A stretch of DNA of 64,000 nt from Myxococcota bacterium (GCA_023150835.1 JAKLKB010000024.1:4534-68533), one strand, 5' to 3'; shown: positions 1 to 39,372, counted from the first letter of the stretch. Notes: a model not told the origin generated them from the sequence alone. Made by a program: numbers and translations.

Positions 1-6
1 ATCCCT

Positions 7-459
7 GTGTGGCAAACCCTTTCGGTGTTGGGATATGCGCGGGCTGCGTCGTCTTCGTGGGCTTTGGTCGGGGCTATCGAGAGTATGCGCCAAGCATACC
101 CACAGACGACCAACACCACGCAAAACACGCTCGAAGCAAAGCCTCAGACGTCTGACGCCATGCAAAGCACGCCCGAAGCCAAGCCCCAGACGCCCGATGG
201 CGACAAAAAAACACCCGACGCCACGATCACAGAAAAGAACAGGCCGAAAGAACATACCAACCAAGTTGCCCGAACCATCGGCCTTTTCAATGTATTATTG
301 CCTTGGTGGGGTTGTGATGCGGAAGGAAAGCCGCCAAGATGCGTGTGGGTGATCACAGAAGATGCGTTGTGCGGCGTGGGCCTGTTGTCTTTGTTTCAAT
401 GCCCGCCTGCTCAAACGATCGATGCCGCAAATTTCTCATCTCGCGGCATCTTGCGATGA
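7..459 (+). CDS. 3' end of a gene that continues upstream of the window; low-complexity Q/T/P/K-rich tail; SSSWALVGAIES resembles a papain-family active-site region with Cys replaced by Ser
   Basis: Frame is open from nt 1; no recognisable domain beyond the short motif. Confidence 0.2.
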   Translation: MWQTLSVLGYARAASSSWALVGAIESMRQAYPQTTNTTQNTLEAKPQTSDAMQSTPEAKPQTPDGDKKTPDATITEKNRPKEHTNQVARTIGLFNVLLPWWGCDAEGKPPRCVWVITEDALCGVGLLSLFQCPPAQTIDAANFSSRGILR

Positions 460-477
460 AAAAAGCTGGATACAGCC

Positions 478-1425
478 GTGAGGAGGGAAGTGATGGAGCG
501 TCGAGAATTTTTCGCCAAAGCAGGCGCGTTGATGATGACTTCGATGGTTGGGGCGTCGATGGATGGGTGTGTTCATCGCGGTGCAGGGGTGGGTGGGTTT
601 GATGTACAAGGTTATCTGTCGCGATTGGACGCGGCGGATCAAAAGATGATGTCGTTGCCATCGGTGTTTCCGAAGGGTGAGAGCCACCAGAAACGCGATG
701 CTTTTGTGCGGCAAGCCTTTTCATCGCTGTTGTTGGTGGGATCGTTGCACGATATCCCCGAAGCGGCACGAAGCCATCCCGCGATCCAAGAGCGCCTGTT
801 GCGTGCGGCTCCTGTGTTGGACAACAGCTTGTTCAAAGCGGCCACGTTGGTCGAGTCCATCCCCGCTGCTCAGCGCAAAGAGATCCAGCGCTTTTTGCAA
901 AAAGAAGAACGCCAAGTCAAAGCGATGCGTTCGTTGATGCTGGATTATGGGGTGCAAGCGGGGGTTGCCAAGTCGCGGTTGATCCACGCGGATCGCTTGA
1001 TGGATCATATCCAATGGCGGATGCAAAAGCAAAATCCGTCGCTGTTGTTGGACACGCACGTCGCCAAGGTCGATCGGGTGGCCGCTTCCTTGGGGATCTC
1101 GGTCGAACAACGCCGAACACAGGGGCAGTTGACTCTCGATCCGCTGAGTGCGTGCCGTGTCTCGTCGCTGCTTGATCCGTTGGCGCAAGAGCCTTCGCGG
1201 GAATCCTTGGAAAGAGACACGCCCCCTGTTCTGGAAGCCCCCAAAAAGAAGCGCGGAAATGTGGGGTTTATCTTGATGGGGATCGGCGGTGCGCTCACCG
1301 TTGGGGGAGTGGTCGCTTCGTTGGTCGGTGGAACCAACGGCATCATCTTTGGCGGAATCTTTGGTTGGACGCCCGGCTCGATCATGTTGTTGATCGGAAT
1401 TCCCTTGGCGATTTTTGGGATTTAA
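478..1425 (+). CDS. Hypothetical exported, membrane-anchored protein; twin-arginine-like N-terminus (MERREFFAKAGA) and a Gly-rich C-terminal TM segment
   Basis: RRxFF motif followed by a hydrophobic stretch; C-terminal GFILMGIGGALTVGGVVASLVGG... hydrophobic segment; likely start at the second Met (nt ~493). Confidence 0.45.
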   Translation: MRREVMERREFFAKAGALMMTSMVGASMDGCVHRGAGVGGFDVQGYLSRLDAADQKMMSLPSVFPKGESHQKRDAFVRQAFSSLLLVGSLHDIPEAARSHPAIQERLLRAAPVLDNSLFKAATLVESIPAAQRKEIQRFLQKEERQVKAMRSLMLDYGVQAGVAKSRLIHADRLMDHIQWRMQKQNPSLLLDTHVAKVDRVAASLGISVEQRRTQGQLTLDPLSACRVSSLLDPLAQEPSRESLERDTPPVLEAPKKKRGNVGFILMGIGGALTVGGVVASLVGGTNGIIFGGIFGWTPGSIMLLIGIPLAIFGI

Positions 1426-1616: not shown

Positions 1617-2039
1617 ATGATCGGAAAGATGCGAGCGGTGGCTTTGGAAAGAGCAGCGGTGCTCGAAGAGTTGAAGGGCCTGTTGATCGACAATCTACAT
1701 CTTTCACTACAGCCAGATGATATCGACCCTGACGCGGCGTTGTTTGGTTCGGGGCTGGGGTTGGATTCCGTCGATGCGGTGGAGTTGGTGGTTGCTGTCG
1801 AAGATCGTTTTGATCTGGATTTTTCGCGCCAGACAGCACCTTCGGAGCCTTCTTCGGCCAAAGCGAGCGATCAGGCCGAACGGACGGGGGCTTCCGCTGT
1901 GGGAGATGCTTTGAGTGGACGGCAGATCGAACAATCCATGCGGATCTTTATGCGAACGCTCAATGCTCTTGTCGACGTGATCTTGTGGGCACGCGCCCAA
2001 AGCCCGTTGGCGACGCCATCTGCGACTCGTTCTTTGTAG
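1617..2039 (+). CDS. Acyl carrier protein with an unusual ~70-aa C-terminal extension
   Basis: LFGSGLGLDSVDAVELVVAVEDRF matches the ACP phosphopantetheine-attachment helix (DS motif); the ORF is open from 1554, internal Met starts at 1617 or 1629. Confidence 0.55.
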   Translation: MIGKMRAVALERAAVLEELKGLLIDNLHLSLQPDDIDPDAALFGSGLGLDSVDAVELVVAVEDRFDLDFSRQTAPSEPSSAKASDQAERTGASAVGDALSGRQIEQSMRIFMRTLNALVDVILWARAQSPLATPSATRSL

Positions 2040-2075
2040 GCAAAAGAGACAGGCACAGAACAAAAAGACGAAGGA

Positions 2076-3248
2076 GTGCTCGGGATGGTATTGCGCGATC
2101 GGATGCAAGCAGATGTGGCGATCTGGCGAGAGGTCGATGGGGTCGAGGTTCCCGCACGCTACACGACGTTAGAGCAAGAAGTCTCGGCTTTGCGGTTTGG
2201 TGTTGGATTGAGTGATCGCTCGTATGTTTGTGTTCTGCGTTTGCGGGGGGAGGATGCTTACGACCTGTTGGATCGGTGTTGTCCGTGCGCGATGTATCTC
2301 CGCGATGGAGAAGTCCGTCACACGGTGCTTTTGTCGGAACAAGGAACCCCGATCTTGGATCTTTATGTGGGCAACGACGATGAGTCTTTTTTTGTGTTCT
2401 CGGAGGGAAAACCCGCGCAAGAAGTGTTGGCGTATTGGCGCTCGATGATCCCCGAAGGAGCGGATATCCAGATCGAGTCGTGGAATGAAACGCACGCATT
2501 GTTGGGACTCAATGGTCCCTTTGCTTGGGAGTTGCTGGCCGAGTTGGAAGGGCATCAAGTGATCGGGTTTCCATACGCGACCTTCTATCGATCTGAAGAA
2601 GAGAATCTGTTCTTTCGCCTCGGAAAGACGGGCGAGTATGGTTATGATATCTTGGTTCCGCGTGACAAGGTGGCGGCGTATTGGGCGCGTGTGTTCGAGG
2701 TTGGACGCTCTTTTGATATCTGCCCTGTCGGATTCGAGGCGTTGGAACACGCGGGGTTGGAAAACTTCTTTTTTTCGATCCGACGAGAAGGTGCGCTTGG
2801 CCTAACGCCTGTCGAGTTGCAGCTACAATGGCGTGTGTCTTACGAAAAAGACTTCTTGGGCCGTGCCGCTCTCGAAGCCGTCAAGACGAGCGATGCACGT
2901 CGCCGTGTGACGGGGATCCGCAGCGCGCATCCGTTGAGCGAGGGGGCAGCCTTGTACTGCGAAGGGGAGCGCGTTGGAGAAGTGGTGGTTGCGATGCGTT
3001 CGGTCACTTTGGGGGCGTGGATCGGCTTGGGGTTGTTGGCGTTGCCGTGGGCGCAAGCGGGTCTGGCGCTCTCGACCGAACGCGCTAAAAAGGCCGATAT
3101 GTGGACTGTTTCGATGCCCTTTGTTCGCAACTTGAGTATGTTGATCAATCCGCAAAAGCACAGTTATCGGGATGCTGCGTCTTTGGAAACGCTGCGCCGA
3201 TCTTTAAGCCAACCTGATATGTGGGTGGAAACAGCGGATGGAGCGTGA
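2076..3248 (+). CDS. Aminomethyltransferase (GcvT/YgfZ)-fold folate-binding family protein
   Basis: N-terminal LRFGVGLSDRSYVCVLRLRGEDAYDLLDRC resembles the GcvT N-terminus (VGLFDVSHMG..GxDAxxFL); GRAALEA near the C-terminal barrel. Confidence 0.5.
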   Translation: MLGMVLRDRMQADVAIWREVDGVEVPARYTTLEQEVSALRFGVGLSDRSYVCVLRLRGEDAYDLLDRCCPCAMYLRDGEVRHTVLLSEQGTPILDLYVGNDDESFFVFSEGKPAQEVLAYWRSMIPEGADIQIESWNETHALLGLNGPFAWELLAELEGHQVIGFPYATFYRSEEENLFFRLGKTGEYGYDILVPRDKVAAYWARVFEVGRSFDICPVGFEALEHAGLENFFFSIRREGALGLTPVELQLQWRVSYEKDFLGRAALEAVKTSDARRRVTGIRSAHPLSEGAALYCEGERVGEVVVAMRSVTLGAWIGLGLLALPWAQAGLALSTERAKKADMWTVSMPFVRNLSMLINPQKHSYRDAASLETLRRSLSQPDMWVETADGA

Positions 3249-3250
3249 GG

Positions 3251-3997
3251 ATGGGGAAGTTTGACGGACAAGTCGCCGTCGTGACGGGATCTTCACGGGG
3301 GATCGGTCGTGCGATCGCGATGGCGATGGCGGAAGAAGGGGCGTTTGTGTACGTGCATTATCAATCACGCGAAGACAAAGCGCGTGAGACGTTGGCGATG
3401 ATCGAAGAAGCAGGAGGGCAGGGGGCGATCTTTGGCGTAGATGTGCGCGATGCAAAGGCCGTCAACGCCGCCTTTACAGAGATATCGGCGCAGAAGGGGC
3501 CGATCGATATCTTGGTGAATAATGCGGGGATCTGTCGTGATCAGTTTTTTGCGATGATGGAAGAAGAAGATTGGCGCGACGTGTTGGAGGTGAATCTGGG
3601 CGGCGTCTACCATTGCAGCCGTGCGGTGGCGCGTTCGATGATGGCGCGTCGTCAAGGGGTGATCTTGCACGTCGCCTCGGTGGCGGGACTCCACGCAAGC
3701 TCGGGGCAGTCGAACTATGCTGCCTCGAAGGGTGCGATCTTGAGCTTGACGCGCACGATGGCTGCGGAACTCGCCCCCAAAGGTGTGCGTGTCAATGCCC
3801 TTGTTCCCGGTATGATCAACGCAGGCATGGCCGAGCGCATGGATCAGCGTATCGCACGACAAAAGCGCGAGATGATCCCTTTGCGGCGCTTTGGCGAAGC
3901 CCACGAAGTCGCCCGTGTCGCGGTGTTTTTGGCCTCGGAGGATGCCCGTTATATCGTCGGTCAGGCTTTGGTCGTGGATGGTGGCTTAACGCTGTAA
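3251..3997 (+). CDS. Short-chain dehydrogenase/reductase, 3-oxoacyl-ACP reductase (FabG)-like
   Basis: TGSSRGIGRAIA Rossmann motif, NNAG, and the S...YxxxK catalytic triad region (SNYAASKGA). Confidence 0.8.
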   Translation: MGKFDGQVAVVTGSSRGIGRAIAMAMAEEGAFVYVHYQSREDKARETLAMIEEAGGQGAIFGVDVRDAKAVNAAFTEISAQKGPIDILVNNAGICRDQFFAMMEEEDWRDVLEVNLGGVYHCSRAVARSMMARRQGVILHVASVAGLHASSGQSNYAASKGAILSLTRTMAAELAPKGVRVNALVPGMINAGMAERMDQRIARQKREMIPLRRFGEAHEVARVAVFLASEDARYIVGQALVVDGGLTL

Positions 3998-4152
3998 CCG
4001 AAGTCCTCCTCGGATACGAGATCCGCCTGTTGCGTTATCGTAAAGAGGTCGGGACAGACACAGGGGTCTGCCTAATCATAGGGCGTCTATGTACTTTGCT
4101 ACGATCACACATCATTCGGATATCGTCTAAGCCGTTGTTTTGAGAGGTATGG

Positions 4153-5169
4153 GTGATGGAACGTCGCATCTTGTGGGCTTTTCCCGGGCAAGGAACGGAA
4201 GAAGCGGGAATGGGGGTTGCGTTGGCATCGGAGTATCCGCTTGTTCGGGCGTGTTTGGAGCGGGCGTCGGATTGTTTGGGGATGGATGTGCATCGGATGT
4301 TGTTGCGGGGGAATCGGAGGATTGGAGAGACGCAGATCTTGCAGCCAGCGATCACAGCGGTGAGTGTAGGGATTGGGCGGATCTTGGAGGCGCACGGGGT
4401 GGGGCGTGGGTGGACGATCGGACATTCTCTTGGGGAGATGGGAGCGGTGTGGGCGGCGGGTGGATGGGGCTGGTCTGAAGCGATCCATCTGTCGGCGGTG
4501 CGGGGGAGTTGGATGGCGGAGGCGGCTCGACAAGTGGAAGGCGGGATGCTTGCGCTTACGGATACTTCCGAAGAAGTCTGTCAAGAAGCCATCGCGTGGG
4601 GGCGGCAGTTTGGGGCGTTTGGTTTGGCGGCACAAAATGGGCCGAGGCTGTGGACATTGACGGGGGATATCGAAGCGGTCGAAGCTGTCTTGAAGCGTTA
4701 TCCGTCTCGTCGGCTGGTGGCTTCGGGAGCTTGGCATAGTCCTCGGATGGCGGAGGCGGTGGAGCCTTTTCGTGCGGTGATGGAGGAGGCTGTGTGTAAG
4801 CTCTTGGAACGAGGTGTGCGTGACGAGGCGGCAGAGCCTTTTCGTGCGACGGTGGCGCAGGTTCCAAAAGGGCATTGGAAAGCGCATTGGATCGCGAATG
4901 CGACGGGCGATATCTGCTCTGATATCGCAGAAGTCCCGAAGCTGTTGAGTATGCAGCTAACCCAGCCGATCCTGTGGATGCTGTCGATGCAGCATTTGGA
5001 AAAAGAAGAGCTCACCGATATCGTGATCTGCGGCCCACATCGGGTCTTACAGGGGTTGTTGCGCCGTCATCTTCCGCGTGCGCGTGTCCATGCAACCGAG
5101 CATCCGCGCTTGTTGCGTGAAACGCTCGATGCTTTGGGTGATCTGCGTTCGAGAGAGGCTGTTCGATGA
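4153..5169 (+). CDS. FabD-fold acyltransferase (malonyl-CoA:ACP transacylase family)
   Basis: FPGQGTE and GHSLGE active-site motifs; its stop overlaps the next start (ATGA), which suggests translational coupling. Confidence 0.75.
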   Translation: MMERRILWAFPGQGTEEAGMGVALASEYPLVRACLERASDCLGMDVHRMLLRGNRRIGETQILQPAITAVSVGIGRILEAHGVGRGWTIGHSLGEMGAVWAAGGWGWSEAIHLSAVRGSWMAEAARQVEGGMLALTDTSEEVCQEAIAWGRQFGAFGLAAQNGPRLWTLTGDIEAVEAVLKRYPSRRLVASGAWHSPRMAEAVEPFRAVMEEAVCKLLERGVRDEAAEPFRATVAQVPKGHWKAHWIANATGDICSDIAEVPKLLSMQLTQPILWMLSMQHLEKEELTDIVICGPHRVLQGLLRRHLPRARVHATEHPRLLRETLDALGDLRSREAVR

Positions 5170-5798
5170 AGCGAAAAAAAGATGTGTTGTCGTTGGGATC
5201 AGAAGTTGTGCAGTTGTTGGTGCCGCAAAGACGGCCTTTTTTGATGGTGGATCGCGTCGAAGCCTACCAACGTGAGCCTCAAGGGTATGCGATCTGTAGT
5301 CGTTGTTTGTCGATCAACGACCCTTTTTTTGCGGGACACTTTCCTCAAATGGCCGTCTTCCCGGGCGCATTGATGTTGGAGGGGATGTGCCAAACCTCGC
5401 AGATCTTGTGTACGTTAACGATCTATCAGCGCTTCATGGAGGAACAAGGCGACGAGCCCGCGTCTCTGCTCGAAGCCTTGCGCAATCTCGAACGCGGCTT
5501 TCGCCTTGAACCCGGATACCAAGAAGAACAAGCCCGACTGTATCTTGAGCGAACACAGCAGGCCCGACGCAACAACATCGGCATGACCGCAAGCACGCAA
5601 ATGAAGTTCCTACATCCCGTCTTTGCGGGTGAACAGGTGTTTTACACTTCGCGTTTGCAGCGGCAGATGGACGAGATGTGGCGCTTTGAGGTCGAGGCCG
5701 AAGTCAACGAGAAGATCGTCGCCAAAGGCGTGGTCACGTCGATGGTTGTCCAACATCCTGCGGTCTCTTCTCTGTTGGCTGCGGTGCTTCACGGGTGA
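5166..5798 (+). CDS. FabZ/FabA-like hotdog 3-hydroxyacyl-ACP dehydratase with a ~50-aa internal insertion
   Basis: PQRRPFLMVDRV and DPFFAGHFPQMAVFPGALMLEGMCQ match the FabZ signature. Confidence 0.7.
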   Translation: MKRKKDVLSLGSEVVQLLVPQRRPFLMVDRVEAYQREPQGYAICSRCLSINDPFFAGHFPQMAVFPGALMLEGMCQTSQILCTLTIYQRFMEEQGDEPASLLEALRNLERGFRLEPGYQEEQARLYLERTQQARRNNIGMTASTQMKFLHPVFAGEQVFYTSRLQRQMDEMWRFEVEAEVNEKIVAKGVVTSMVVQHPAVSSLLAAVLHG

Positions 5799-5814
5799 GG
5801 GTGTTTTGAGTGCG

Positions 5815-7488
5815 ATGGCGATATCGATCCGAGAGATGGCTCGGAAGGACGGGAGGTTTCGAGTGAAAGAAGAGCGGGAGCGAAGTTATTGGGGATGGGG
5901 CTACGCAGATCAAGTGTTGCCTGAAAAGCTGTTGGCGCGGTTTCAAGGGACGTTGCAGATGGCGTTGGGGTTGGAGGCGTTGCGGCATCGCCAACCGTTG
6001 GGGCTTTCGGCGCTGCGGCTTCGTGTACCGCGCTTTGCATTACCCGCATCGTTGCGGGATATCTGCACGCAGGAAACGCCCGAGCGTGCAAGACACAGCT
6101 ACGGAAAAGCGTTTCGCGATGTGGTGCGCGGGCTGTACGGGCAATTCGACAACCCGCCCGATTATGTGGCCTATCCGCGAAGTGAGGCCGATATCGAGCG
6201 TTTGTTTGCGTTTTGTGGTGCATCCAACGTGGCGCTGATCCCGTTTGGTGGGGGAAGCAGCGTGGTGGGCGGTGTCGAACCTCCCCGAACAGCGGGGTAT
6301 GCGGGGGCGATATCGTGTGATATGCGCTTTTTTGATCGGGTGATACGGGTGGATCGCGAAAGTCGAACCGCAACCATCCAAGCGGGGATCTACGGCCCTG
6401 CCTTGGAGGCGGCCTTGAAGCCGCATGGCTTGACGTTGCGCCATTTTCCCCAAAGCTTCGAGTTTTCCACTTTGGGCGGGTGGATCGCAACCCGCTCTGG
6501 CGGCCATTATGCGACGGTTCAAACCCACATCGACGAATTTGTGCAGTCTGTACGGATGGTGACGCCCAAAGGTGTGTTGGAAACCCGCCCTTTACCCGGA
6601 TCGGGGGCCGGCCCAGAGCCTTCGCGTTGGGTGATCGGCTCCGAAGGGATCTTTGGCATCCTTACCGAAGCCACCATGCGCTTGCAAGATATCCCGCAGT
6701 ATCGGTCCAAAGCGACGGTGTCGTTTGCGTCTGAACCTGCGGGGTTTGCGGCGGTTCGCCAGATCAGCCAATCCGGACTCTCTCCCGCCAACTGTCGGCT
6801 GATCTCTTCGATGGAAGCTTTTAGCATGGGAGCGGGCGATGGTCGCGAGACGATCTTGTTGTTGGGGTTCGAGTCTCACGATCATCCGCAACAGCAGCGA
6901 TTGGAGCGGGCCTTGGCGATCTGCGCACAGCACGACGGCTCGCCCAAAGTCTTGCAAGGTCGGGCCTTGGACGACGAAGAGGGCGATGCTTCGGAGCGTT
7001 GGAAACAGAGCTTTTTGTTGGCTCCGTACCTGCGCGATGCGATGCTTTGTTGTGGGATCTTGCTTGAAACCTTTGAAACCGCCGTCACATGGGATCGTTT
7101 TGCTGCGTTCCATCAAGCCGTGATCGCGGCTGCGACGGATGCTTTGCAAGCACACTGCGGCGGAGGGTTGATCACATGGCGTTTTACGCATGTCTATCCT
7201 GACGGGCCTGCGCCTTATTACTCGGTGGTGGCTCCTGCCCGAGAAGGCCAAGAAGTCGAACAATGGGACGCCATCAAATCCGCTGTCTCTGACGCGATCC
7301 TCGCCTGTGGTGGCACGATTACACACCACCACGCCGTCGGCAAAGATCATCGACCTTGGTATACGCAACAGATATCCCCTCTCTTCGGCGAGATCCTCCA
7401 CCAAGCCAAACGCACCCTCGATCCCGCGTGGATACTCAACCCCGAAGTCCTCCTCCCTCCCGACCCTCCTCACTCACAACGCTCTTGA
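5815..7488 (+). CDS. FAD-linked oxidase of the alkyl-dihydroxyacetone-phosphate synthase (AGPS) family
   Basis: N-terminal YWGWGY (AGPS WNGWGY box); FAD-binding PCMH motifs PFGGGSSVVGG, EFSTLGGWIATRSGG and GSEGIFGILTEATMRL; the ORF is open from 5623, first plausible Met at 5815. Confidence 0.7.
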   Translation: MAISIREMARKDGRFRVKEERERSYWGWGYADQVLPEKLLARFQGTLQMALGLEALRHRQPLGLSALRLRVPRFALPASLRDICTQETPERARHSYGKAFRDVVRGLYGQFDNPPDYVAYPRSEADIERLFAFCGASNVALIPFGGGSSVVGGVEPPRTAGYAGAISCDMRFFDRVIRVDRESRTATIQAGIYGPALEAALKPHGLTLRHFPQSFEFSTLGGWIATRSGGHYATVQTHIDEFVQSVRMVTPKGVLETRPLPGSGAGPEPSRWVIGSEGIFGILTEATMRLQDIPQYRSKATVSFASEPAGFAAVRQISQSGLSPANCRLISSMEAFSMGAGDGRETILLLGFESHDHPQQQRLERALAICAQHDGSPKVLQGRALDDEEGDASERWKQSFLLAPYLRDAMLCCGILLETFETAVTWDRFAAFHQAVIAAATDALQAHCGGGLITWRFTHVYPDGPAPYYSVVAPAREGQEVEQWDAIKSAVSDAILACGGTITHHHAVGKDHRPWYTQQISPLFGEILHQAKRTLDPAWILNPEVLLPPDPPHSQRS

Positions 7489-7629
7489 TGGACGCCTTTG
7501 CTACAAACCCACAACGCTCTTGACGGACGCCTTCGCTACAAACCAAAACGCTCTTGACAAATTCTCCGAACACGACGAACGATCGGTCCGCTGATCTTGT
7601 TTTGCCCTTCGACCGCAAAGGAGTTTGTC

Positions 7630-8064
7630 ATGGAGATCCCCAAGTTTCTACGCGAACGTGCTGTCCAAGCCATCGATTCATTGCTTACCATCCAAGAAGC
7701 CGCCGGCCTGATGCAGATACACAACGTCGGTGCTTTGCTGGTGATCGAAGATGGCCGACTTGTCGGCCTGATCTCGGAACGCGATATCGCTTGCAAAGTC
7801 GCCGCAGAAGGTCGTGATCCAAGCACCACCCTTGTCCAACAAGTTATGACCTCCGAAGTGATCTCCGTCGTCGAAACCGATTCCCTCGAATATGCGATGG
7901 AGCTGATGCAACGCCACCACATCCGTCACCTCCCGATGATGCGCGACGGCCAAGTCCTCGCCATGCTCGGCCTCCGTGACCTCTGTGAACTCCGCGTCAA
8001 GCTCCTTCACAGCGAAAACCGCAATCTCGCTTCCATCGTCGCTCTCCACGATCAAGACGCCTGA
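7630..8064 (+). CDS. CBS-pair domain protein
   Basis: Two CBS-like units (VGALLVIEDGRLVGLISERDI ... IRHLPMMRDGQVLAMLGLRDL). Confidence 0.65.
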   Translation: MEIPKFLRERAVQAIDSLLTIQEAAGLMQIHNVGALLVIEDGRLVGLISERDIACKVAAEGRDPSTTLVQQVMTSEVISVVETDSLEYAMELMQRHHIRHLPMMRDGQVLAMLGLRDLCELRVKLLHSENRNLASIVALHDQDA

Positions 8065-8065
8065 T

Positions 8066-8160
8066 CCCGCCTCTCAAGCCCAACTACACCCCGCCTCTCA
8101 AGCCCAACTACACCCCGCCTCTCAAGCCCAGCCACACCCCGCCTCTCAAACCCAACTAGG
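8066..8160. repeat. 24-bp direct tandem repeat x4 (cgcctctcaagcccaactacaccc) immediately after the CBS gene stop
   Basis: Four near-identical units visible directly in the sequence. Confidence 0.8.
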
Positions 8161-8194
8161 TACTCCTATCCCATCGGATTGACGCGGTTGCTAA

Positions 8195-8340
8195 AAAAAG
8201 CCGTGTTCGCGCTCCTTCAAGCGACAGAGCCGTTGGTTTGAAAGACTTGTGCTCTTTTCGCCCCTCACGGGGTCAAGGGGCGGCAGTCTATGGCGGGGTT
8301 TGGGGCAACGCCCCACAAAAATCATCGAACCGCATCACTC
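8195..8340. repeat. ~130-bp structured interspersed element (family B), plus orientation
   Basis: Same consensus as 1430-1560 and the other copies. Confidence 0.6.
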
Positions 8341-8651
8341 CTCCCCTCATCGAAAAAACACCTTGAGTCCCCTTCTTTTTTCGTTGCGATCTCCGCCGAC
8401 TGTGTAGTTTTCGTAACACTTGTACAAGAAAAAAGATCGTGGTATGACAGCCACGCGTTACGCCGCAATGCCATTCAGTGCGTGACCAAGCAAGAGGAGG
8501 TGCTGGGTTTCGCAAGGATTCTTTTGGACTTGTTTGGTGCGCGTAGCGCTTGAATAACAAGCCATTGAGATGCCTTAGAACACATCATCTTGAGAAAAAC
8601 ATTGAAGAGGCGGAGGTGTCGCTGCGTTTTGCATGAGGGAGTTTTACATCG

Positions 8652-9311
8652 ATGAGGGCGTACGTCATGAGTGGGTATGATCGTTTTTCTGTAGGAGATC
8701 GAGGAAGCCTGTGGGTGGAGTCGCTGGTTTCTCCTTATCGGCGCGAAACCATCGAGGCATTGGGGGATTGTGCGGGAGGGGCTGTATTGGATCTCGCTTG
8801 TGGAGAAGGTGAGAACTTTGATCACTGGCGTTTGGGGTCGAAACATGCGCCCGCATGGGTGATCGGTGTGGACGCCTCGATCCGCAAGCTGCGCGAAGCC
8901 CACCAGCGCGTCCGTCAAGGCGGGTGGAAAAATGCAGTCCTTCTGCAAACCGAAGATTATGCTTTGGAACAGCCGTTGTTTTCGGAGTATTGGCGAAGCG
9001 ATGGTTTTGATGGCGTGGTGTGTACGTTGGGGCTGACGGCTCTCCAAGATTGGGAACAAGTGTTCTCAAGATCTTTTTCCTTATTGAAGCCGGGTGGGCG
9101 ATTCGCGATCTTGGATCGCTATACCAGCAAAGACGAATCCAATCCCGCTTCCGAAGGCACCAGTCCCGCGCCCGATTTTACACGCCGTGTCTGGGAATCC
9201 TTGGAACGTGCTTGCGATGACTTCCAGATGCGCTTTTTGGATGCTTCCCCCCGCGCTCTCGGCGGAAACCTCTATCTCGCTTCGGGAAGACGCAAACTGA
9301 TCGCCCACTAG
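8652..9311 (+). CDS. Class I SAM-dependent methyltransferase
   Basis: VLDLACGEGEN motif I; typical length. Confidence 0.55.
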   Translation: MRAYVMSGYDRFSVGDRGSLWVESLVSPYRRETIEALGDCAGGAVLDLACGEGENFDHWRLGSKHAPAWVIGVDASIRKLREAHQRVRQGGWKNAVLLQTEDYALEQPLFSEYWRSDGFDGVVCTLGLTALQDWEQVFSRSFSLLKPGGRFAILDRYTSKDESNPASEGTSPAPDFTRRVWESLERACDDFQMRFLDASPRALGGNLYLASGRRKLIAH

Positions 9312-9426
9312 ATCGCGCTTGCTTTTTTCTCCAATCGTTCCGCATCGACAGATATCGCCAAAACATCTTGATAGGGCCCGGGTATGGGGTTTTTGTCTAC
9401 TGATCCGCCCGTTGTGTGCGACCTAT

Positions 9427-9575
9427 GTAGGGGCAGCCCCCTGTGGCTGCCCAATAAAAGGGCGTCTGCGTAAAGATGTAGGGGCAGCCCTCTGTGGCTG
9501 CCCAATAAAAGGGCGTCTGTGTAAAGATGTAGGGGCAGCCCCCTGTGGCTGCCCAATAAAAGGGCGTCTACAGCA
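9427..9575. repeat. REP-like family A, three tandem ~57-bp units each containing the hairpin GGGGCAGCCCCCTGTGGCTGCCC
   Basis: Direct reading; the same unit occurs inverted at 19628-19770. Confidence 0.85.
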
Positions 9576-9617
9576 GATCGCACCTACCCTTCCCTATCAA
9601 AAGAAGGAGGCGTTTCG

Positions 9618-10316
9618 ATGCGTTTGTTTGTATTCGTGAGTTTGTTTGGCCTTTTGCTTGCCAAGGTGGAGATGTGTTCGACCCATCCATCGCTACCCGC
9701 TGAAGTGCGTGCGGAAACACCCGCCCAAGAAGACAAGTATGCGATCCCACCGCTGCCGCGTGTTCCAAACGGCGCAGAAGTGGCGATCTTTGCGGGCGGA
9801 TGCTTTTGGTGCGTCCAACCTCCTTTTGACAAACAAAAAGGCGTGCTTGCCACAAGCGTCGGATTCACGGGCGGCAGCGAAAAGAACCCCACCTACAAAG
9901 ACGTTGCCTACGGGCGAACCAGCCACACCGAAGCCTTGTTTGTGGTGTACGATCCAAAGCAGGTCACTTACGAAAAACTCTTGGATATCTTTTGGCGACA
10001 GATCCAACCCAACCAAAAAAACGGCCAATTTGCCGATATCGGGACGCAATATCGAACGGGGATTTTTTATACAAACGCGGCCCAACGCCGCGCCGCTGAA
10101 GCCTCGAAAAAAGCCATCGCTGCGAGCGGTTGCTTTCTTGCCGATATCGCCGTCGAGATCTCCAAGGCCACCCCGTTTTATCCCGCAGAAAATTACCATC
10201 AAAAGTATTATCAAAAAAATCCTTCACATTATCTGCGCTACAAGATCGGCTCGGGGCGAGCAGGTTATCTCGCCGCTCGCTGGACAGAAAAAGGCTGTCG
10301 CCCCCTCCCCAAATAA
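9618..10316 (+). CDS. msrA: Peptide methionine sulfoxide reductase MsrA (exported)
   Basis: GCFWC active site; N-terminal signal peptide. Confidence 0.8.
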   Translation: MRLFVFVSLFGLLLAKVEMCSTHPSLPAEVRAETPAQEDKYAIPPLPRVPNGAEVAIFAGGCFWCVQPPFDKQKGVLATSVGFTGGSEKNPTYKDVAYGRTSHTEALFVVYDPKQVTYEKLLDIFWRQIQPNQKNGQFADIGTQYRTGIFYTNAAQRRAAEASKKAIAASGCFLADIAVEISKATPFYPAENYHQKYYQKNPSHYLRYKIGSGRAGYLAARWTEKGCRPLPK

Positions 10317-10486: not shown

Positions 10487-12763
10487 TCAGCGCTTGGCAG
10501 GTTGTGGCAAAGCCCGATGTTCCGAATGGGTGGCTGGGTCTGCGGCTTTGGCTACCACAAGCCGCTTGAGAGCCAACGCCGCGCTAACGCGTACTTCGTT
10601 ATCTGTGTCCTCAAGAACCTCCTTCAACGCGGAAAGCACTTCTTTGGAACCCACCCCCACCTCGCCCAAGGCTTTTGCTGCGTTCTTGCGAACCAAACCA
10701 TCTACGTCGCTGAGGGCGAAGATCAGCGCAGGGATCGCCGCACGAGCTTCTCCCTTCATCTTGCCCAGCGCCACGGCTGTATCGTGGCGCAGTTTGTTCT
10801 CCGCGTCCTTGAGGAACCGAACCAAGGTCGGGATCGCTACACGAGCTTCCACACCTATCCCACCCAATGCCTGCACAGCATTTCTGCGAACCTCCCCGCC
10901 CTTGCGTCGAAGAGTTGAAAGAAGCAACGGCACCGCCGCCACCCCCATCTTCCCCAAGGCCCACACGATATCTCGGTGAACCCAACTTTCCCCGTCCTCA
11001 AGCCCCCGAATCAAGGCTGGAATCGCTTCTTTGGCTCCCACTCCCATCTTCCCCAAGGCCAAGGCCGCTCCCTTACGAGCGAAACTCTTTTTGTATTTGA
11101 GCGTCCGAATCAAGGCTGGGAGCGCGGCTTTTGCTTTTCCTCCCATCTTACCCAAAGCTAGGGCCGCATGATAGGAGACGACGCCATCTTTATCCTTGAG
11201 AGTTCGAATCAAGGCAGGGATCGCAGAAGTGGCCTCAACGCTCATTTCCCCCAAGGCTTCGGCCACATCCTTACGAACCCCGCTATCCTTGTCTTTGAGT
11301 AACCGAATCAATGTAGGGATCGCGGCTTTGGCTTCCGCCCCCATCTTCCCCAAAGCCCTTGCCGCGCTCCTGCGAACCCAGTAATCCCCATCACCGAGCG
11401 CCCGAATCAAGGCCGAGAGCGCAGCACGAGCCTCCGCTCCCATCCCAACTAACGCCTTCGCTGCATTCCAACGAACATCGCTATCCGTGTCTTGTAGGGC
11501 TGCGATCAACGTCGGAACCGCCAACCCGCCGATCATTCCTAACGCCGATGCCGCGTACAAGCGAACGAAGCGATCTCTGTCCTTGATCGCCTGAGCCAGA
11601 GCAGGGATCGCCACATGGGCCTCCCTTCCGATCCTTCCCAACGCCTGTGATGCACTCAAACGAACGTTGTTATCCTTGTCTTGGAGAGCCTGAATCAGCG
11701 CAGGGAGCGCCGATCGAGCCTTCCTTCTCATACCCCCCAACGCAAAGATCGCAGCGTCACGAACATCGCTCTCCGTCTCGTTCAGCAGTCGCAACAGCAA
11801 CGGCATCGCTGCATCGGCCTCTGCCTCCACCCCGATTTGCCCCAACGCAAAGGCTGCTTTTTTTTGGACATCCTTCTCTTTGTCTTGGAGAGCACGGAGC
11901 AGGGCTGGAATGGCTGCCTTCGCTCTTGCTTTCATCTCGCCTAGAGCCTCCGCTGCACCAACACGAACCTTTTTGTCCTTGTGTTGGAGGGCCTTGATCA
12001 GCGGCGCAACCGCTTCCTCGCCCATCAAACCCAAGGCCCAAACACCTCCCCTGTGATCGTCGCTGTTTGGGCTTTGAAGGAGTTCGATCAACAGCGGTAT
12101 CATCCACTCGCCCATCTTCCGCAAGGCCAAGGCTCCACGAACGCGGATCTCGCGATGCTTTCCTCTAATTTGATCAAGGAGGACAGGCAGCGCACCTTTG
12201 GCCGCCACACCCATCTTCGCTAACGCCTCCGCTGCCTCCAAGCCCACGTCGCGTTCTGGATCATCAAGAGCCGTGATCAGGGATGGGATCGCCTTCGTTC
12301 CTATTCGGCCCAAAGCATAGACCGCGCCCTTACGGACCAGACGTTCATGGTTCTTGAGTGATTCGACCAAGACAGGGAGTGCCGCATCTGCCGACTCTCC
12401 CATCAAACCCAAGGCCCACACAACACGAGCGCGAACCTCCCCGTCTTTGTCCTTGACTGCTTGAACGAGCGCTGGGAACGCTGCACGAGCCTTCGGCCCG
12501 ATCTTTCCCAACGCCCATGCTGCATACGAACGCACAGAGCGATCCCTGTCCTTGAGCGCCCGAATCAGCGCTGGGATCGCCGCTTTCGCCTCTTTTCCCA
12601 TCCTCCCCAAGGCCCACGCTGCGTTTACGCGGGCTGAACTCTTCTTGCTCTGAAGTTGTTTTTGTAGGCCGATAATTCGGTCGGTATTGCCCGCGTGAAC
12701 TTTGGGGGAGAGGATAGTCAAGAGCCAGACAGCCACAAAAATTCGCCATCCTTGCTCCTGCAT
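10487..12763 (-). CDS. Secreted HEAT-repeat (PBS-lyase type) protein, ~20 repeats
   Basis: Repeating VRxxAAxALGxIG units; signal peptide begins at the internal Met (MQEQGWRIFVAVWLLTIL); the ORF is open to 12880. Confidence 0.6.
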   Translation of the reverse strand: MQEQGWRIFVAVWLLTILSPKVHAGNTDRIIGLQKQLQSKKSSARVNAAWALGRMGKEAKAAIPALIRALKDRDRSVRSYAAWALGKIGPKARAAFPALVQAVKDKDGEVRARVVWALGLMGESADAALPVLVESLKNHERLVRKGAVYALGRIGTKAIPSLITALDDPERDVGLEAAEALAKMGVAAKGALPVLLDQIRGKHREIRVRGALALRKMGEWMIPLLIELLQSPNSDDHRGGVWALGLMGEEAVAPLIKALQHKDKKVRVGAAEALGEMKARAKAAIPALLRALQDKEKDVQKKAAFALGQIGVEAEADAAMPLLLRLLNETESDVRDAAIFALGGMRRKARSALPALIQALQDKDNNVRLSASQALGRIGREAHVAIPALAQAIKDRDRFVRLYAASALGMIGGLAVPTLIAALQDTDSDVRWNAAKALVGMGAEARAALSALIRALGDGDYWVRRSAARALGKMGAEAKAAIPTLIRLLKDKDSGVRKDVAEALGEMSVEATSAIPALIRTLKDKDGVVSYHAALALGKMGGKAKAALPALIRTLKYKKSFARKGAALALGKMGVGAKEAIPALIRGLEDGESWVHRDIVWALGKMGVAAVPLLLSTLRRKGGEVRRNAVQALGGIGVEARVAIPTLVRFLKDAENKLRHDTAVALGKMKGEARAAIPALIFALSDVDGLVRKNAAKALGEVGVGSKEVLSALKEVLEDTDNEVRVSAALALKRLVVAKAADPATHSEHRALPQPAKR

Positions 12764-12861
12764 CCTCTTCCATCGTCTCGTAAAAATCCGATGCGTCGTG
12801 CTTTCCATCGAATGTTTCTCCTTTGGTAGGCGAACCCTGATTAGAAACCTCACGGCTTGGC

Positions 12862-14550
12862 CTAAATCGGTGTGATCCAAAGGGCAGAAGTGGGATGGTG
12901 GCCTTCAACGATATCGCGGGTGAGCGTCAGGGTGCGGATGCCTTCTCGCGAAGGGATCTCATAGAGGATATCGAGCATGAGCTCTTCGAGGATCATGCGC
13001 AATCCGCGTGCGCCGACTTTTTGGCGCAAGGCTTTTTCCGCGATGGCATCAAGGGCTGCCGGTTCAAAGACAAGCTGGACGCCTTCAAAGGACAACATCT
13101 GCTTGTATTGGGCGACGAGGCTGTTTTTGGGTTCCGTCAAGATCCGCACCAGCGCCGCATGATCGAGCGGATCGAGTGTTGCGCATACAGGCAACCGCCC
13201 GATCAACTCGGGCAACATCCCGTAGCGAACGAGGTCTTCGGGCAAGACTTGTCGGAGTAGATCGTCGGTGGATACGACCGATGCAAGCAGATCGCCGATC
13301 GCTTGTTCTTGCCCTGCAAGGCGGCGAGCGATGATCTCTTCAATGCCTACGAAGGCTCCACCACAGATGAAAAGGATGTTGGATGTATCGATCTGTACGC
13401 CCTCATCGCCTGATTGGCTGCGCCCCCGTGTACCCGGCAGGATGGCGCTTGTACCTTCGAGCAGTTTGAGCAGAGATTGTTGGACGCCTTCACCGGAGAT
13501 ATCCCGTGTGGCCGAAGCGGAGGGCTTTCGAGCGATCTTGTCGATCTCGTCGATGTAGAGGATCCCCCGTTCGGTTCTTTGCTTGTCGCCTTCTGCCGCT
13601 TGGTAAAGCCGCGTCAACATCTGTTCGACATCTTGGCCGACGTAGCCCGCTTCGGTCAGCGATGTCGCGTCGGCCATCGCAAACGGAACATGCAGACTGC
13701 GCGCAAGAGATTGTGCCAACAGCGTCTTTCCTGTGCCGCTTGGCCCGATCAACAGCACATTCGATTTGTGCAGTTCAACCCCGTAAGCAGGGCGCTTTTG
13801 CATGTATTCCACACGGTGATAATGGCTGTACACGGCCACCGCAAGTTTCTTTTTGGCCTGTTCTTGGGCGATTACATACCGATCCAGAAACTCCTTGATG
13901 GCGCGTGGGGTCGGAGCGTAGCCACAAGGGCGCTTTGGCAACGGAGGCGCGGAACGCACAGACGAAGAAGGCTCCTCGTGTATCGGTTGCGAAAGCGGCG
14001 TAGGCTCCTCGTGTATCGGTTGCGAAAGCGGCGTAGGCTCCTCGTGTATCGGTTGCGAAAGCGGCGTAGGCTCCGCGTGCATCGGTTGCGAAAGCGGCGT
14101 AGGCTCCGCGTGTATCGGTTGCGAAGGCGGCGTAGGCTCCGCGTGTATCGGTTGCGAAGGCGGCGTAGGCTCCGCGTGTATCGGTTGCGAAGGGGAGGGA
14201 TGGAGGGGGGGGCCATCGTCGGGGGTCAAAGAGCGAAGGGTGAGCGGGTGGTTGTCCGCATCTTGCGCGATGAAGGGTTGGATCGATCGGGCTTCGGAAG
14301 ATGCAGGAAAATGCACGCGTCGATGAGGGGCGATATCCTTCAATGTTCGGAGCCTTTCGTTTGGGTGGGGTGGTGGGCGATTTGATCCGTTGCCGATCCC
14401 GAATGTACGACAGTAGGTGGTTTGAGCCGAGTGTACGACAGTGGGCGATTTGAGCCGTTGTCGAACCCGATCGTACGATAGTGGGTGGTTTGGGCCGTTG
14501 TCGAACCCGATCGTACGATAGTGGGTGGTTTGGGCCGTTGTCGAACCCAA
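12862..14550 (-). CDS. ClpX-like AAA+ unfoldase paralog lacking the N-terminal zinc-binding domain; its N-terminus is encoded by tandem DNA repeats (true start uncertain)
   Basis: IKEFLDRYVIAQEQAKK, Walker [27 protein letters not shown] and the sensor-2 region align with the ClpX at 42313; the CxxC zinc-binding domain is absent; 8x EPTPLSQPIHE (33-bp units) precede the ATPase domain. Confidence 0.6.
   Translation of the reverse strand: MGSTTAQTTHYRTIGFDNGPNHPLSYDRVRQRLKSPTVVHSAQTTYCRTFGIGNGSNRPPPHPNERLRTLKDIAPHRRVHFPASSEARSIQPFIAQDADNHPLTLRSLTPDDGPPLHPSPSQPIHAEPTPPSQPIHAEPTPPSQPIHAEPTPLSQPMHAEPTPLSQPIHEEPTPLSQPIHEEPTPLSQPIHEEPSSSVRSAPPLPKRPCGYAPTPRAIKEFLDRYVIAQEQAKKKLAVAVYSHYHRVEYMQKRPAYGVELHKSNVLLIGPSGTGKTLLAQSLARSLHVPFAMADATSLTEAGYVGQDVEQMLTRLYQAAEGDKQRTERGILYIDEIDKIARKPSASATRDISGEGVQQSLLKLLEGTSAILPGTRGRSQSGDEGVQIDTSNILFICGGAFVGIEEIIARRLAGQEQAIGDLLASVVSTDDLLRQVLPEDLVRYGMLPELIGRLPVCATLDPLDHAALVRILTEPKNSLVAQYKQMLSFEGVQLVFEPAALDAIAEKALRQKVGARGLRMILEELMLDILYEIPSREGIRTLTLTRDIVEGHHPTSALWITPI
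14395..14545. repeat. ~45-bp tandem repeat (ccgttgtcgaacccgatcgtacgatagtgggtggtttggg) x3 at the 5' end of the ClpX-like ORF
   Basis: Direct reading. Confidence 0.7.
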
Positions 14551-26563: not shown

Positions 26564-27139
26564 TCAGTTTTGGGCGAGATCGTAAGTGGAGACAGTGGCG
26601 TTAAAGTCGGGCTTTGCGGGTTCAGAGAAGTTGGGACTCATGCGAAGCTCGCGGACTTTGACGATCTGGCCGGAGTTTTCGATGCCATCGAGAAAGCGAG
26701 CCAGAGCGCCCAGATCGGCAGCGGTGATACTGATACGGACGGAGCGTTCGCGTAGGCGAGAGGCGTTGGGGGCGGCGGAAGGTGCATCGGAGACGGGATT
26801 CATGGAGGAGATATTGATGCTGTGTTTTTGGCTGAGTTGATCGAGAAAGGTGATGAGGTTGAGGCGTCCGGCTTGTTTGATGCGCTGTTCGAGGCGTTCG
26901 ACTTTGCGTTTGGCGACTTCAAAGCGGCTTTGGAGTTGGGCGATCTGAGCCAGTTGTTTGACGAGTTCTTGGTTGCTGCTTTCGCGGCTTTTGAAGCTAC
27001 CGCCGATCACAAGGTCGCCGATGTAAAGGAGCAAGAGCAGGCCGACGACACCGATGATCAGGGCCAAGACACGATCACGCGGAGATTGTTGTTCGAGATA
27101 AGCGGTGACTTGATCAACCTTTTCTTCAAAGAAAGCCAT
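26564..27139 (-). CDS. gspM: Type II secretion system protein M-like
   Basis: Single TM helix plus coiled-coil; position in the operon. Confidence 0.5.
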   Translation of the reverse strand: MAFFEEKVDQVTAYLEQQSPRDRVLALIIGVVGLLLLLYIGDLVIGGSFKSRESSNQELVKQLAQIAQLQSRFEVAKRKVERLEQRIKQAGRLNLITFLDQLSQKHSINISSMNPVSDAPSAAPNASRLRERSVRISITAADLGALARFLDGIENSGQIVKVRELRMSPNFSEPAKPDFNATVSTYDLAQN

Positions 27140-27224
27140 AATGCTTGCATTCCTTGTGGTATAGGGCAGTTTGCAGGTGTCTCAGCAGTCAAGGGGGCTG
27201 CATTGTTCGGTCGAGGTTGTGGGG

Positions 27225-27345
27225 CTTTGCCCAACGCCCCGCGCCCTTAGCGCGGCTGCCTTGACCCCGTATTGGCGCGGTGTTCCTTGGTTTTTCAATC
27301 GAACAGCCTTGCCGCTTGAAGTGGCGCGAACACGGGGGGTTTTGT
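27225..27345. repeat. Family B ~130-bp element inside the T2SS operon, in the gspL-gspM intergenic gap
   Basis: Consensus match. Confidence 0.6.
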
Positions 27346-27360
27346 CCACAGCCCATTGTT

Positions 27361-28989: not shown

Positions 28990-29019
28990 AGGAGATTCCT
29001 TACAAGCGAGAGCATGGGG

Positions 29020-30798: not shown

Positions 30799-30813
30799 GG
30801 TGTGGGCCTCGTT

Positions 30814-31581
30814 TTATTGGCGTTGAAGTGCGCCTTGCATCACGACGCGGGTACGGGTGAGGAAGGTGGTTTCTTCGCCGCTGGGGTCGGCGACGGTGAG
30901 TTTGATCTCGATGAGGGAGGGCATGATCACACGTCCGACGTTGTTTCCGATGCGTCCGCCGAACTCGACTTTTGTGGTGTCCCAGTTGTCGATCCAGTCA
31001 TTTTTGCGTTTGTCCCAAAAGCGGAAGGTCAAGCGTTTGACGCGCTCAAGCATGACATAAGCGACACCGCCGCGTTCGGGTTCGTGGTTGATGACGGGGT
31101 TGACGCGGCGCAGGAGCAGGTGGACTTTGGGGTCTTTGGGGCTGGGTTTGCCGTAATACTCGACGATGGCTTGGTCGGACTCACGGGCATTTCGGACCAT
31201 GCGGACATGGGAGAAGGTGGAGAACAAGAGTCGGCTGACGGGGGCGTCGGGAGTGCTGCGAACGAGGGTGAGGGGGATGCGGCTGAGGTCGGTGACGGCG
31301 CTCCCGGGGATGCTGACATAGGTCATGGCGATCTCACGGGCCATACGGTCGAGGACGACGCGAGCGCCGTGGTAGCGGTCGTTGATCTCGCCGATGGTTT
31401 CGCGGGCATTTTGAGTGCGAGCGATCACGCCGATGGTCGCGACGCCAAGCATACCGATCAGAAAGACGCTGATCATGATCTCCAACAAAGTCATCCCGGC
31501 TTGGGCGCGATAGAGTCGGAGGGATGGCCGAGATCGGTGAGGGATCAAGGGGTGGATTGTTGGTTGTTTTTGTCGGGGCAT
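30814..31581 (-). CDS. gspJ: Type II secretion pseudopilin J
   Basis: Prepilin-type N-terminus ...G|MTLLEIMISVFLIG. Confidence 0.6.
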   Translation of the reverse strand: MPRQKQPTIHPLIPHRSRPSLRLYRAQAGMTLLEIMISVFLIGMLGVATIGVIARTQNARETIGEINDRYHGARVVLDRMAREIAMTYVSIPGSAVTDLSRIPLTLVRSTPDAPVSRLLFSTFSHVRMVRNARESDQAIVEYYGKPSPKDPKVHLLLRRVNPVINHEPERGGVAYVMLERVKRLTFRFWDKRKNDWIDNWDTTKVEFGGRIGNNVGRVIMPSLIEIKLTVADPSGEETTFLTRTRVVMQGALQRQ

Positions 31582-32910: not shown

Positions 32911-33004
32911 CGTCCGAAGAGATGGTCGAAGTGTGTTTGGAAGAAGTGTGGGCTGTTGCATGGGGCGTCCTTGGGTGCGGAGGTTTGGAGTGAAGGGAGG
33001 CGGA

Positions 33005-33451: not shown

Positions 33452-33656
33452 TCGAGGAGCGCTCCTTTCGGAAGGTTGGACTCGCACGGTGTGGCGAGGT
33501 TCGCCGAGGTCGGCATATCGGAGGACATAGGCCAAAGGGCTGAACGGTGTGGAGGATCAGCCTCGGATGGCGTATTTGAGAACAGGGACCAAATGGCCGA
33601 TGTATGGGGCTGCTCATCCATGTGTGGGGATGGTCAGCCATGTGTGTTGTGGTCGA

Positions 33657-34925: not shown

Positions 34926-35008
34926 AATCCAAACCTTTGTGATGGCGAGGAGATCGTTTTGTCGCCTTTGTGTGTGCGCAGGTCACGGGAGATCGGGTGG
35001 TTTTGAGA

Positions 35009-36802: not shown

Positions 36803-36852
36803 GGGGGCTCCTTTGTAAGCAACGGAGAAAGATATCCACGAGTGCAGCAGCG

Positions 36853-39366: not shown

Positions 39367-39372
39367 AGGGGC

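Follow-up and report, generated by a model that had tools for sequence, protein, structure and literature searches.

We analysed a 64-kb stretch of DNA from a Myxococcota bacterium (hereafter the window; coordinates refer to its full length), in which a first-pass annotation had described six genes at 1617–7488 as a self-contained module for alkylglycerol or plasmalogen-precursor synthesis that lacked a ketosynthase. We concluded that the operon does not encode an ether-lipid pathway sufficient in itself but an orphan cassette resembling type II fatty acid synthase (FAS) and polyketide synthase (PKS) systems, which in one lineage carries a gene for a homologue of AGPS, the alkyl-dihydroxyacetone phosphate (alkyl-DHAP) synthase. 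The six flagged genes are probably the distal part of an operon with at least eight genes, extending from a fused ketosynthase/chain-length factor (KS-CLF) gene through the AGPS gene (Table 1).

Genes were called by listing and translating open reading frames (ORFs), and domains were assigned by Pfam and NCBIfam scans. All six flagged genes were intact and ran in one direction, and the scans upheld their description as an acyl carrier protein (ACP), a GcvT-fold protein, a FabG-like reductase of the short-chain dehydrogenase/reductase (SDR) type, an MCAT-fold acyltransferase, a FabZ-like dehydratase and an AGPS-like flavoenzyme. The spacing was as tight as had been claimed: the acyltransferase (AT) and dehydratase (DH) genes overlap by 4 nt, 2 nt separate the GcvT-like gene from that of the ketoreductase (KR), and 16 nt lie between DH and AGPS. 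The six genes are not the whole set. A gene for a lipoprotein with a twin-arginine translocation (Tat) signal, which is a core operon member, had been overlooked, and the KS-CLF gene is cut by the window edge.

The cassette and its conserved genes

The missing ketosynthase is an artefact of the window edge, because the KS-CLF gene runs past it on the left. Translated in frame 1, bases 1–459 correspond to the C-terminus of a 943-aa double-KS protein (71% identity over 150 aa) from locus L001 (GCA_963852895.1; L-numbers denote the compared genome loci). L001 is the closest relative of the window, with an AGPS that is 96% identical, and in it the double-KS protein and then a 310-aa protein are encoded directly upstream of the ACP. 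Full-length KS-CLF copies of 819–943 aa were found at the matching position in four relatives (L001, L009, L091 and L092), and the label "KS-less" had to be abandoned. In the L001 orthologue, the N-terminal half is FabF-like and has an intact Cys224/His357/His393 triad; the window itself holds the C-terminus only. The second half aligned weakly to KS and has lost both His residues (GH to GY), suggesting that it is chain-length-factor-like. A window edge can thus produce a false "missing enzyme" anomaly. Directly upstream of KS-CLF, in a region to the left of the window, a protein of 234–295 aa without a Pfam match is encoded in three relatives (L001, 389–1567; L092, 6535–7275; L091, 4787–5491), and it may be a further operon member.

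The Tat-lipoprotein had no Pfam or NCBIfam match. Its start at ATG 493 agrees with the 310-aa homologue P0215, and GTG 478 is an alternative start. The 315-aa form of the window and a 340-aa Sorangium protein encoded upstream of KS belong to one family, which comprised 355 clusters at 50% identity among 1.84 billion representatives. An AlphaFold model built from three sequences reached a pLDDT of 39, too low to be of use.

The catalytic motifs of KS, KR, AT and DH are intact (the KS triad being that of the L001 orthologue) and the carrier Ser site is present; that is, the type II FAS/PKS elongation set is complete. The best solved-structure matches of AT were all malonyl-CoA:ACP transacylases, and its PGQG, GHSLGE, VRG and GAWHS motifs are present. 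In DH, the His of GHFP and the Glu of EG..Q are conserved; the insertion of about 50 aa that had been noted in this FabZ-like enzyme was confirmed, and it is a family trait common to cassette DHs (184–230 aa). The SDR had been proposed to be an acyl/alkyl-DHAP reductase. Because both the SDR and the AT bear FabG/FabD signatures and are conserved in cassettes that lack AGPS (Table 1), we read them as ketoreductase and malonyl transferase and, on this evidence, reject the roles of alkyl-DHAP reductase and DHAP acyltransferase. The operon encodes no enoyl reductase (FabI/FabK/FabV or MDR-type), and the gene tables of L001, L006, L007, L091 and L092 list none either. A thioesterase was likewise absent from those five tables and, as the annotation had stated, from the operon. 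We also considered the cispentacin families AmcB/E/F/G as NCBIfam assignments and rejected them, since all scores fell below cut-off and were weaker than the FabF and FabZ matches.

The GcvT-like protein is a distinct family and the signature gene of the cassette. About 90 close relatives were found among 5.8 billion proteins, and the window protein scored far below the cut-offs of the GcvT equivalogs (TIGR00528, 98 bits against 236; NF001567, 124 bits against 300). An AlphaFold model from a 34-sequence alignment (pLDDT 92) showed the three-domain T-protein fold; it matched the T-proteins 1woo and 1yx2 with TM scores of 0.77–0.85 at 24–26% identity (Foldseek E 1e-33 to 3e-32) and was nearer to T-proteins than to DmdA, LigM or YgfZ/Iba57. 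The Asp matching Asp96 of Thermotoga maritima T-protein, the catalytic residue, was kept in 33 of the 34 sequences, and the R-x-G-x-T-G-E motif is conserved. Two other residues with functional roles in the T. maritima enzyme have changed: Asn112 is replaced by Glu or Asp (32/34) and Arg227 by Leu. Invariant W252 and R253 are peculiar to the family, as is a conserved extension at the C-terminus. The GcvT-like protein may plausibly use folate.

In 62 of 64 loci the ACP gene lies immediately upstream of the GcvT-like gene, and the ACP has a long insertion ahead of its last helix. No GCV_H or GDC-P domain occurred in the five gene tables. The constant pairing suggests that the ACP stands in for the H-protein as partner of the T-protein homologue. 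The resemblance to GcvT with its H-protein includes the three-domain fold, the catalytic Asp, the TGE motif and a gene that adjoins that of a swinging-arm carrier. However, the cassette carrier is a phosphopantetheinyl ACP and not a lipoyl H-protein, and the T-protein homologue differs in its invariants and sub-threshold scores. Two apparent fusions in the protein database, GcvT-KR and ACP-GcvT (P0200 and P0214; locus L008), were considered as Rosetta-stone evidence and discarded, as their Arg-rich linkers are out of frame and come from a frameshifted long-read metagenome contig.

A scan of one genome per species with the GcvT-like protein returned 250 encoding loci. The best 80 were fetched and searched by tblastn with the operon proteins; the denominators in Table 1 are the loci with enough flank, 64 overall and 54 cassette loci with enough downstream sequence, the AGPS-bearing clade apart. 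Among the 80 were Myxococcota such as Sorangium cellulosum So ce56, Polyangium, Archangium, Kofleriaceae and Anaeromyxobacteraceae, together with Fibrobacterota, Gemmatimonadota, Poribacteria, KSB1 and Acidobacteriota. We met no account of the cassette in literature searches, in agreement with the earlier claim that the gene set fits no described locus. The first seven genes constitute a conserved, uncharacterised type II FAS/PKS-like cassette.

Table 1. Genes of the operon in the window and the beta-propeller gene of other lineages, with the number of compared loci that hold each gene
Feature	Position	Strand	Characteristics	Loci
KS-CLF fusion gene, 3' end only	1..459	+	5' part beyond left window edge	63/64
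Tat-signal lipoprotein gene	493..1425	+	RREFF twin-arginine motif then Cys; Gly-rich C-terminal membrane segment	59/64
Dedicated ACP, 140 aa	1617..2039	+	PP-binding 2e-8; GLDSVD serine motif	62/64
GcvT-like T-protein homologue	2076..3248	+	GCV_T 2.6e-38 and GCV_T_C	
FabG-type 3-oxoacyl-ACP reductase (KR, SDR)	3251..3997	+	TIGR01830 3.6e-82; NF009466 251 bits, cut-off 222	39/54
FabD-type malonyl-CoA:ACP transacylase (AT)	4153..5169	+	TIGR00128 2.6e-42	34/54
FabZ-type 3-hydroxyacyl-ACP dehydratase (DH)	5166..5798	+	FabZ NF000582 2.8e-28	39/54
AGPS homologue (flavoenzyme)	5815..7488	+	FAD_binding_4 (PF01565) 2.2e-31; FAD-oxidase_C (PF02913) 1.1e-37	0/54
PD40 beta-propeller protein				37/54

Accessory genes occurred in subsets of loci and encoded a CrtI-family desaturase (14/47), an AMP-ligase, a ferritin-like di-iron protein, and a FAD halogenase-like protein with DUF1702. 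In variant cassettes (L012 and L070, 10.7–14 kb; L018, L030, L036 and L074), the KS, ACP and GcvT-like genes are followed by an AMP-ligase and/or CrtI-family desaturase gene, with KR, AT and DH replaced; these variants suggest two alternative routes toward a similar unsaturated ACP-bound substrate. The halogenase-like gene lies upstream of the cassette in Poribacteria and KSB1 (L063, L068, L072, L073 and L083) and in Gemmatimonadota (L053 and L060). A DUF1702 gene joins it in the five Poribacteria and KSB1 loci, which hints at a halogenated product there.

The AGPS homologue and the history of its linkage

Sequence matches place the flavoenzyme with AGPS and not with GlcD or D-lactate dehydrogenase (D-LDH). 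Among solved structures it matched AGPS of Dictyostelium (2uuu; 2.6e-70, 241 bits) and guinea pig (4bby; 2.2e-56, 195 bits), compared with 90 bits for D-LDH and 87 bits for glycolate oxidase (both about 1e-24); against the GlcD profile TIGR00387 it reached 102 bits, the cut-off being 568. The annotation's assignment to AGPS thus held, and the grouping with GlcD/D-LDH that it had named as counting against that assignment did not occur. Arg328, Thr458, Tyr468 and His504–506 align with Arg419, Thr568, Tyr578 and His615–617 of 4bby, residues with functional roles in the guinea-pig enzyme. The PCMH FAD domain and WGWGY N-terminal box reported earlier are also present. Among bacterial AGPS homologues, the WGWG[YWF] motif was found in 59 of 62 and the HHH motif in all 62; the N-terminal 102 aa alone gave no AGPS match among solved structures, and the box was thus compared among bacterial homologues only. 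The enzyme is predicted to be an alkyl-DHAP synthase with its catalytic apparatus intact.

Identity to free-standing bacterial homologues was 55–62%. A scan of JGI metagenomes with the AGPS sequence recovered no member of the window's clade, the best match being 59% identical. It has been noted that AGPS has poor phylogenetic signal (bioRxiv 10.1101/2025.10.10.681575).

An AGPS gene downstream of DH was found only in the window, L001, L092 (GCA_020633035.1) and the short contig L090, all from one Myxococcota clade, with a DH-AGPS gap of 6–16 nt in all four. A further member of the L001 lineage, L009, is a Myxococcota metagenome-assembled genome from the window's own lineage (94% identity), whose contig breaks off within DH. 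Identities of the window proteins to those of L092 were 62% for GcvT, 52% for AT, 80% for KR, 74% for DH and 78% for AGPS. AGPS therefore lies in the range of KR and DH and above GcvT and AT, which argues for long vertical inheritance with the operon under constraint.

The linkage has also been broken. L091 (GCA_964267905.1) has a GcvT 82% identical to that of the window and is syntenic on both sides. Its seven cassette genes are intact and AGPS is gone, and the spacer between DH and the CBS-domain gene retains a 98-nt remnant, 82% identical to window 7400–7496, that still encodes the AGPS C-terminal peptide. This remnant indicates a secondary deletion of AGPS. In the next outgroup, L010 (GcvT 54%), a SelO gene occupies the slot after DH. 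The expectation that all six genes would be co-conserved in relatives fails for AGPS: the other five genes are co-conserved across phyla, and AGPS is confined to one clade and was deleted in L091.

We also inspected 84 loci with other bacterial AGPS genes (50–62% identity). None held KS, ACP, GcvT-like, AT, DH or Tat-lipoprotein genes, and 20 had an unspecific SDR. Genes for alpha/beta-hydrolase, enoyl-CoA hydratase and GMC oxidoreductase recur beside these free-standing AGPS genes, as do genes for SDRs, small TPR proteins and B12 radical-SAM proteins, and never FAR (fatty acyl reductase) or GNPAT. The loci (L002, L094, L098, L104, L114, L117 and others) come from Chloroflexota, Bacteroidota and unbinned metagenome contigs, and the physiological role of bacterial AGPS outside Myxococcus seems unexplored.

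Proposed function and rival explanations

As the reading that we consider fairly probable overall, we propose that the FabD-type enzyme would load malonate onto the dedicated ACP, that the KS half of the fusion would perform the condensation, and that the FabG-type KR and then the FabZ-type DH would give a 3-hydroxy and then an enoyl chain. Because no enoyl reductase or thioesterase is encoded, the product may be an ACP-bound chain that is unsaturated or polyene-like, or else a specialised chain of short length. The T-protein homologue most likely modifies a carrier-bound intermediate, the ACP arm replacing that of lipoyl H-protein, and one-carbon chemistry linked to folate may be its reaction; this is the least certain step. 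The Tat-lipoprotein, and the beta-propeller protein of most other lineages, would point to a destination in the envelope.

AGPS acts on acyl-DHAP and a long-chain alcohol. Its gene was probably gained at the operon's 3' end by the ancestor of a single Myxococcota clade, and there the enzyme presumably converts acyl-DHAP and a fatty alcohol to alkyl-DHAP, as in Myxococcus xanthus, with the reductase and the acyltransferase encoded elsewhere. It may incorporate a cassette-derived chain, and it is not an integral part of the cassette. That the linkage is stable and translationally tight suggests that two membrane-lipid functions are expressed together.

The M. xanthus AGPS gene, MXAN_1676, sits with a FAR-GNPAT fusion gene and has been experimentally implicated in ether-lipid synthesis (bioRxiv 10.1101/2025.10.10.681575). 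The window shares with MXAN_1674–1676, and with eukaryotic AGPS/FAR/GNPAT, an AGPS homologue that has all catalytic residues. As with M. xanthus, the host belongs to the Myxococcota, a phylum known for AGPS-based ether lipids (bioRxiv 10.1101/2025.10.10.681575). The settings differ in that the M. xanthus AGPS is accompanied by the FAR-GNPAT fusion and an NAD-epimerase-type protein, whereas the window AGPS lies behind a FAS/PKS-like cassette.

A real functional connection between AGPS and the cassette could be membrane-lipid co-regulation, or the ether-linking of a cassette-derived chain after its reduction by an unlinked FAR. We regard such a connection as a serious possibility that nonetheless falls well short of an even chance, and several findings weigh against it or against parts of the proposal above. 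The Pfam scan found no FAR (NAD_binding_4/Sterile), no PlsB/PlsC-type acyltransferase (GNPAT) and no TMEM189/CarF (PEDS1) in the 64-kb window, nor did any of the three occur within 10 kb of the operon in L001 and L092; on PlsC the first-pass annotation had been right, as it was on thioesterase. AGPS was absent from every one of the 54 other cassette loci with enough downstream sequence, the 84 other AGPS loci lacked cassette genes apart from the unspecific SDR matches, and the loss of AGPS from L091 with its cassette intact indicates that there is no obligatory coupling. A housekeeping FabI could reduce the cassette chain in trans, and the product itself is only inferred. As to the T-protein homologue, the replacement of residues at the Asn112 and Arg227 positions leaves folate dependence as an inference, and Iba57, a GcvT-fold protein, functions without folate (PMC9551070). 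The boldest form of the proposal is that the T-protein homologue was recruited to the ACP for folate-dependent one-carbon or aminomethyl chemistry on a tethered intermediate, yielding a new class of envelope lipid in about 250 species and at least six phyla that AGPS in this clade joins to glycerol by an ether bond. We consider this unlikely.

Much of the same evidence would suit an AGPS that is biochemically unrelated to the cassette, merely borrows the operon promoter and serves ordinary myxobacterial ether lipids, the cassette product being something else, such as an envelope polyene or pigment. Its restriction to one clade, the lack of cassette genes beside other AGPS genes and the deletion in L091 all agree with such a passenger. 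So does the variability of the slot after DH, which holds the beta-propeller gene in most loci and SelO in L010, and so do the natural-product-type accessory genes of other lineages (CrtI-like, halogenase-like, DUF1702 and AMP-ligase). However, the linkage spans the clade down to 62% GcvT identity with gaps of 6–16 nt, and AGPS is conserved like KR and DH, which is more than a transient insertion would show. We hold this explanation to be possible, on the doubtful side. A different departure would keep the AGPS mechanism and change its substrate: a cassette-derived molecule, for example a hydroxylated product, would be exchanged for the acyl group of acyl-DHAP, so that an ether lipid of a new kind would form with no classical fatty alcohol involved. 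The tight operon linkage, the position of AGPS in the slot that the beta-propeller gene fills in other lineages and the lack of a nearby FAR gene speak for it. Yet all canonical catalytic residues are kept and identity to the free-standing homologues is 55–62%, which argues for the canonical reaction, and no cassette step yields a primary alcohol; we judge this very unlikely.

The original proposal of a KS-less alkylglycerol or plasmalogen module, in which the SDR would be the acyl/alkyl-DHAP reductase and AT would acylate DHAP, has been largely refuted, and we give it almost no weight. The AGPS is genuine, and SDR genes do lie near AGPS in 20 of the 84 other loci. Against this, a KS is present, the signatures of the SDR and AT are those of FabG and FabD and both genes persist in cassettes without AGPS, the window lacks FAR and a PlsB/GNPAT-type DHAP acyltransferase, and AGPS does not share the conservation of the other five genes.

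Related systems, flanking sequence and significance

The closest described systems to the orphan cassette are the aryl-polyene (APE)/flexirubin and the anammox "ladderane" clusters, and it meets the defining accessory set of neither. Like APE/flexirubin clusters, the cassette lacks an enoyl reductase, and it has in common with them a dedicated ACP, the pairing of KS with a CLF-like partner, a FabG-type KR (flexirubin FlxB being among its best NCBIfam matches, 246 bits), a FabZ-type DH (with a faint ApeI-like match) and similar envelope-directed accessory proteins. The cassette differs in that its KS and CLF are fused and that the T-protein homologue and the Tat-lipoprotein are invariant partners. 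The gene tables of L001, L006, L007, L091 and L092 contained none of the APE accessory set, namely an ApeH-type/adenylating or ammonia-lyase-type starter enzyme, LolA-like protein, MMPL export protein, lipid acyltransferase or glycosyltransferase, although no dedicated APE profile search was run.

The ladderane cluster encodes amxACP, amxFabZ, two FabF homologues, a phytoene-dehydrogenase-like enzyme and a B12 radical SAM enzyme (PMC10139942). Common to both are a dedicated ACP, a variant FabZ and two KS-type domains, and a CrtI-family enzyme occurs in the 14 of 47 cassette loci mentioned above. Structures of amxFabZ were among the best solved-structure matches of the cassette DH, and in both cases the cluster is conserved and its product unproven. 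In contrast, the cassette has no radical SAM enzyme, has the T-protein homologue and Tat-lipoprotein, and includes no anammox bacteria among its taxa.

Housekeeping type II FAS (FabD, FabF, FabG, FabZ and AcpP) offers a further comparison, since all of its components but the enoyl reductase have a cassette homologue with an intact active site. The cassette proteins nevertheless fell below the NCBIfam equivalog cut-offs (FabZ, 99 against 113 bits; FabD, 145 against 261; ACP, 34 against 70). They also differ in architecture, with a CLF-like domain joined to the KS, the 50-aa insertion in the DH and a 140-aa ACP.

Turning to noncoding sequence, a GC-rich inverted repeat (TGTGGGG ... CCCCACA) lies at 1431–1460, within the 191-bp gap between the Tat-lipoprotein and ACP genes, and may form a hairpin inside the operon; lacking a T-run, it was passed over by the terminator scan. 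An Rfam search of the window gave no match, and promoter and terminator scanning gave background levels only. A 35-bp tandem repeat (7475–7558; 2.4 copies, 92% matches) covers the AGPS stop codon and the spacer before the CBS-domain gene. Every unit contains CTCTTGAC, a sequence similar to a -35 element. In L091, which is syntenic, the unit occurs just once, so that the window appears to hold a duplicated promoter-like element.

Downstream of the operon, 7597–10316 encodes a CBS-pair protein, a UbiE-type methyltransferase and MsrA, an order that is kept in L001, L091 and L092 and absent from the cassettes of other lineages. A 797-aa HEAT-repeat protein is encoded at 10487–12880 (- strand), and a complete type II secretion/pilus-like cluster at 26564–40335 (- strand) has secretin, GspE, GspF, pseudopilin, PilM-like and GspM components. 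Besides this secretion cluster, the products that the Pfam scan identified among the other large ORFs of the window included ClpX, pyruvate kinase and proteins with HEAT or RCC1 repeats.

A cassette that has a T-protein homologue and a Tat-exported lipoprotein as invariant partners thus occurs in about 250 species-level genomes from at least six phyla, and it is apparently undescribed in the searchable literature. If true, the pairing of the T-protein homologue with an ACP would be a new way to combine one-carbon chemistry with that of carrier proteins. Functional clues to the cassette are few; its linkage to AGPS in one myxobacterial clade is among them and hints at a membrane-lipid product.

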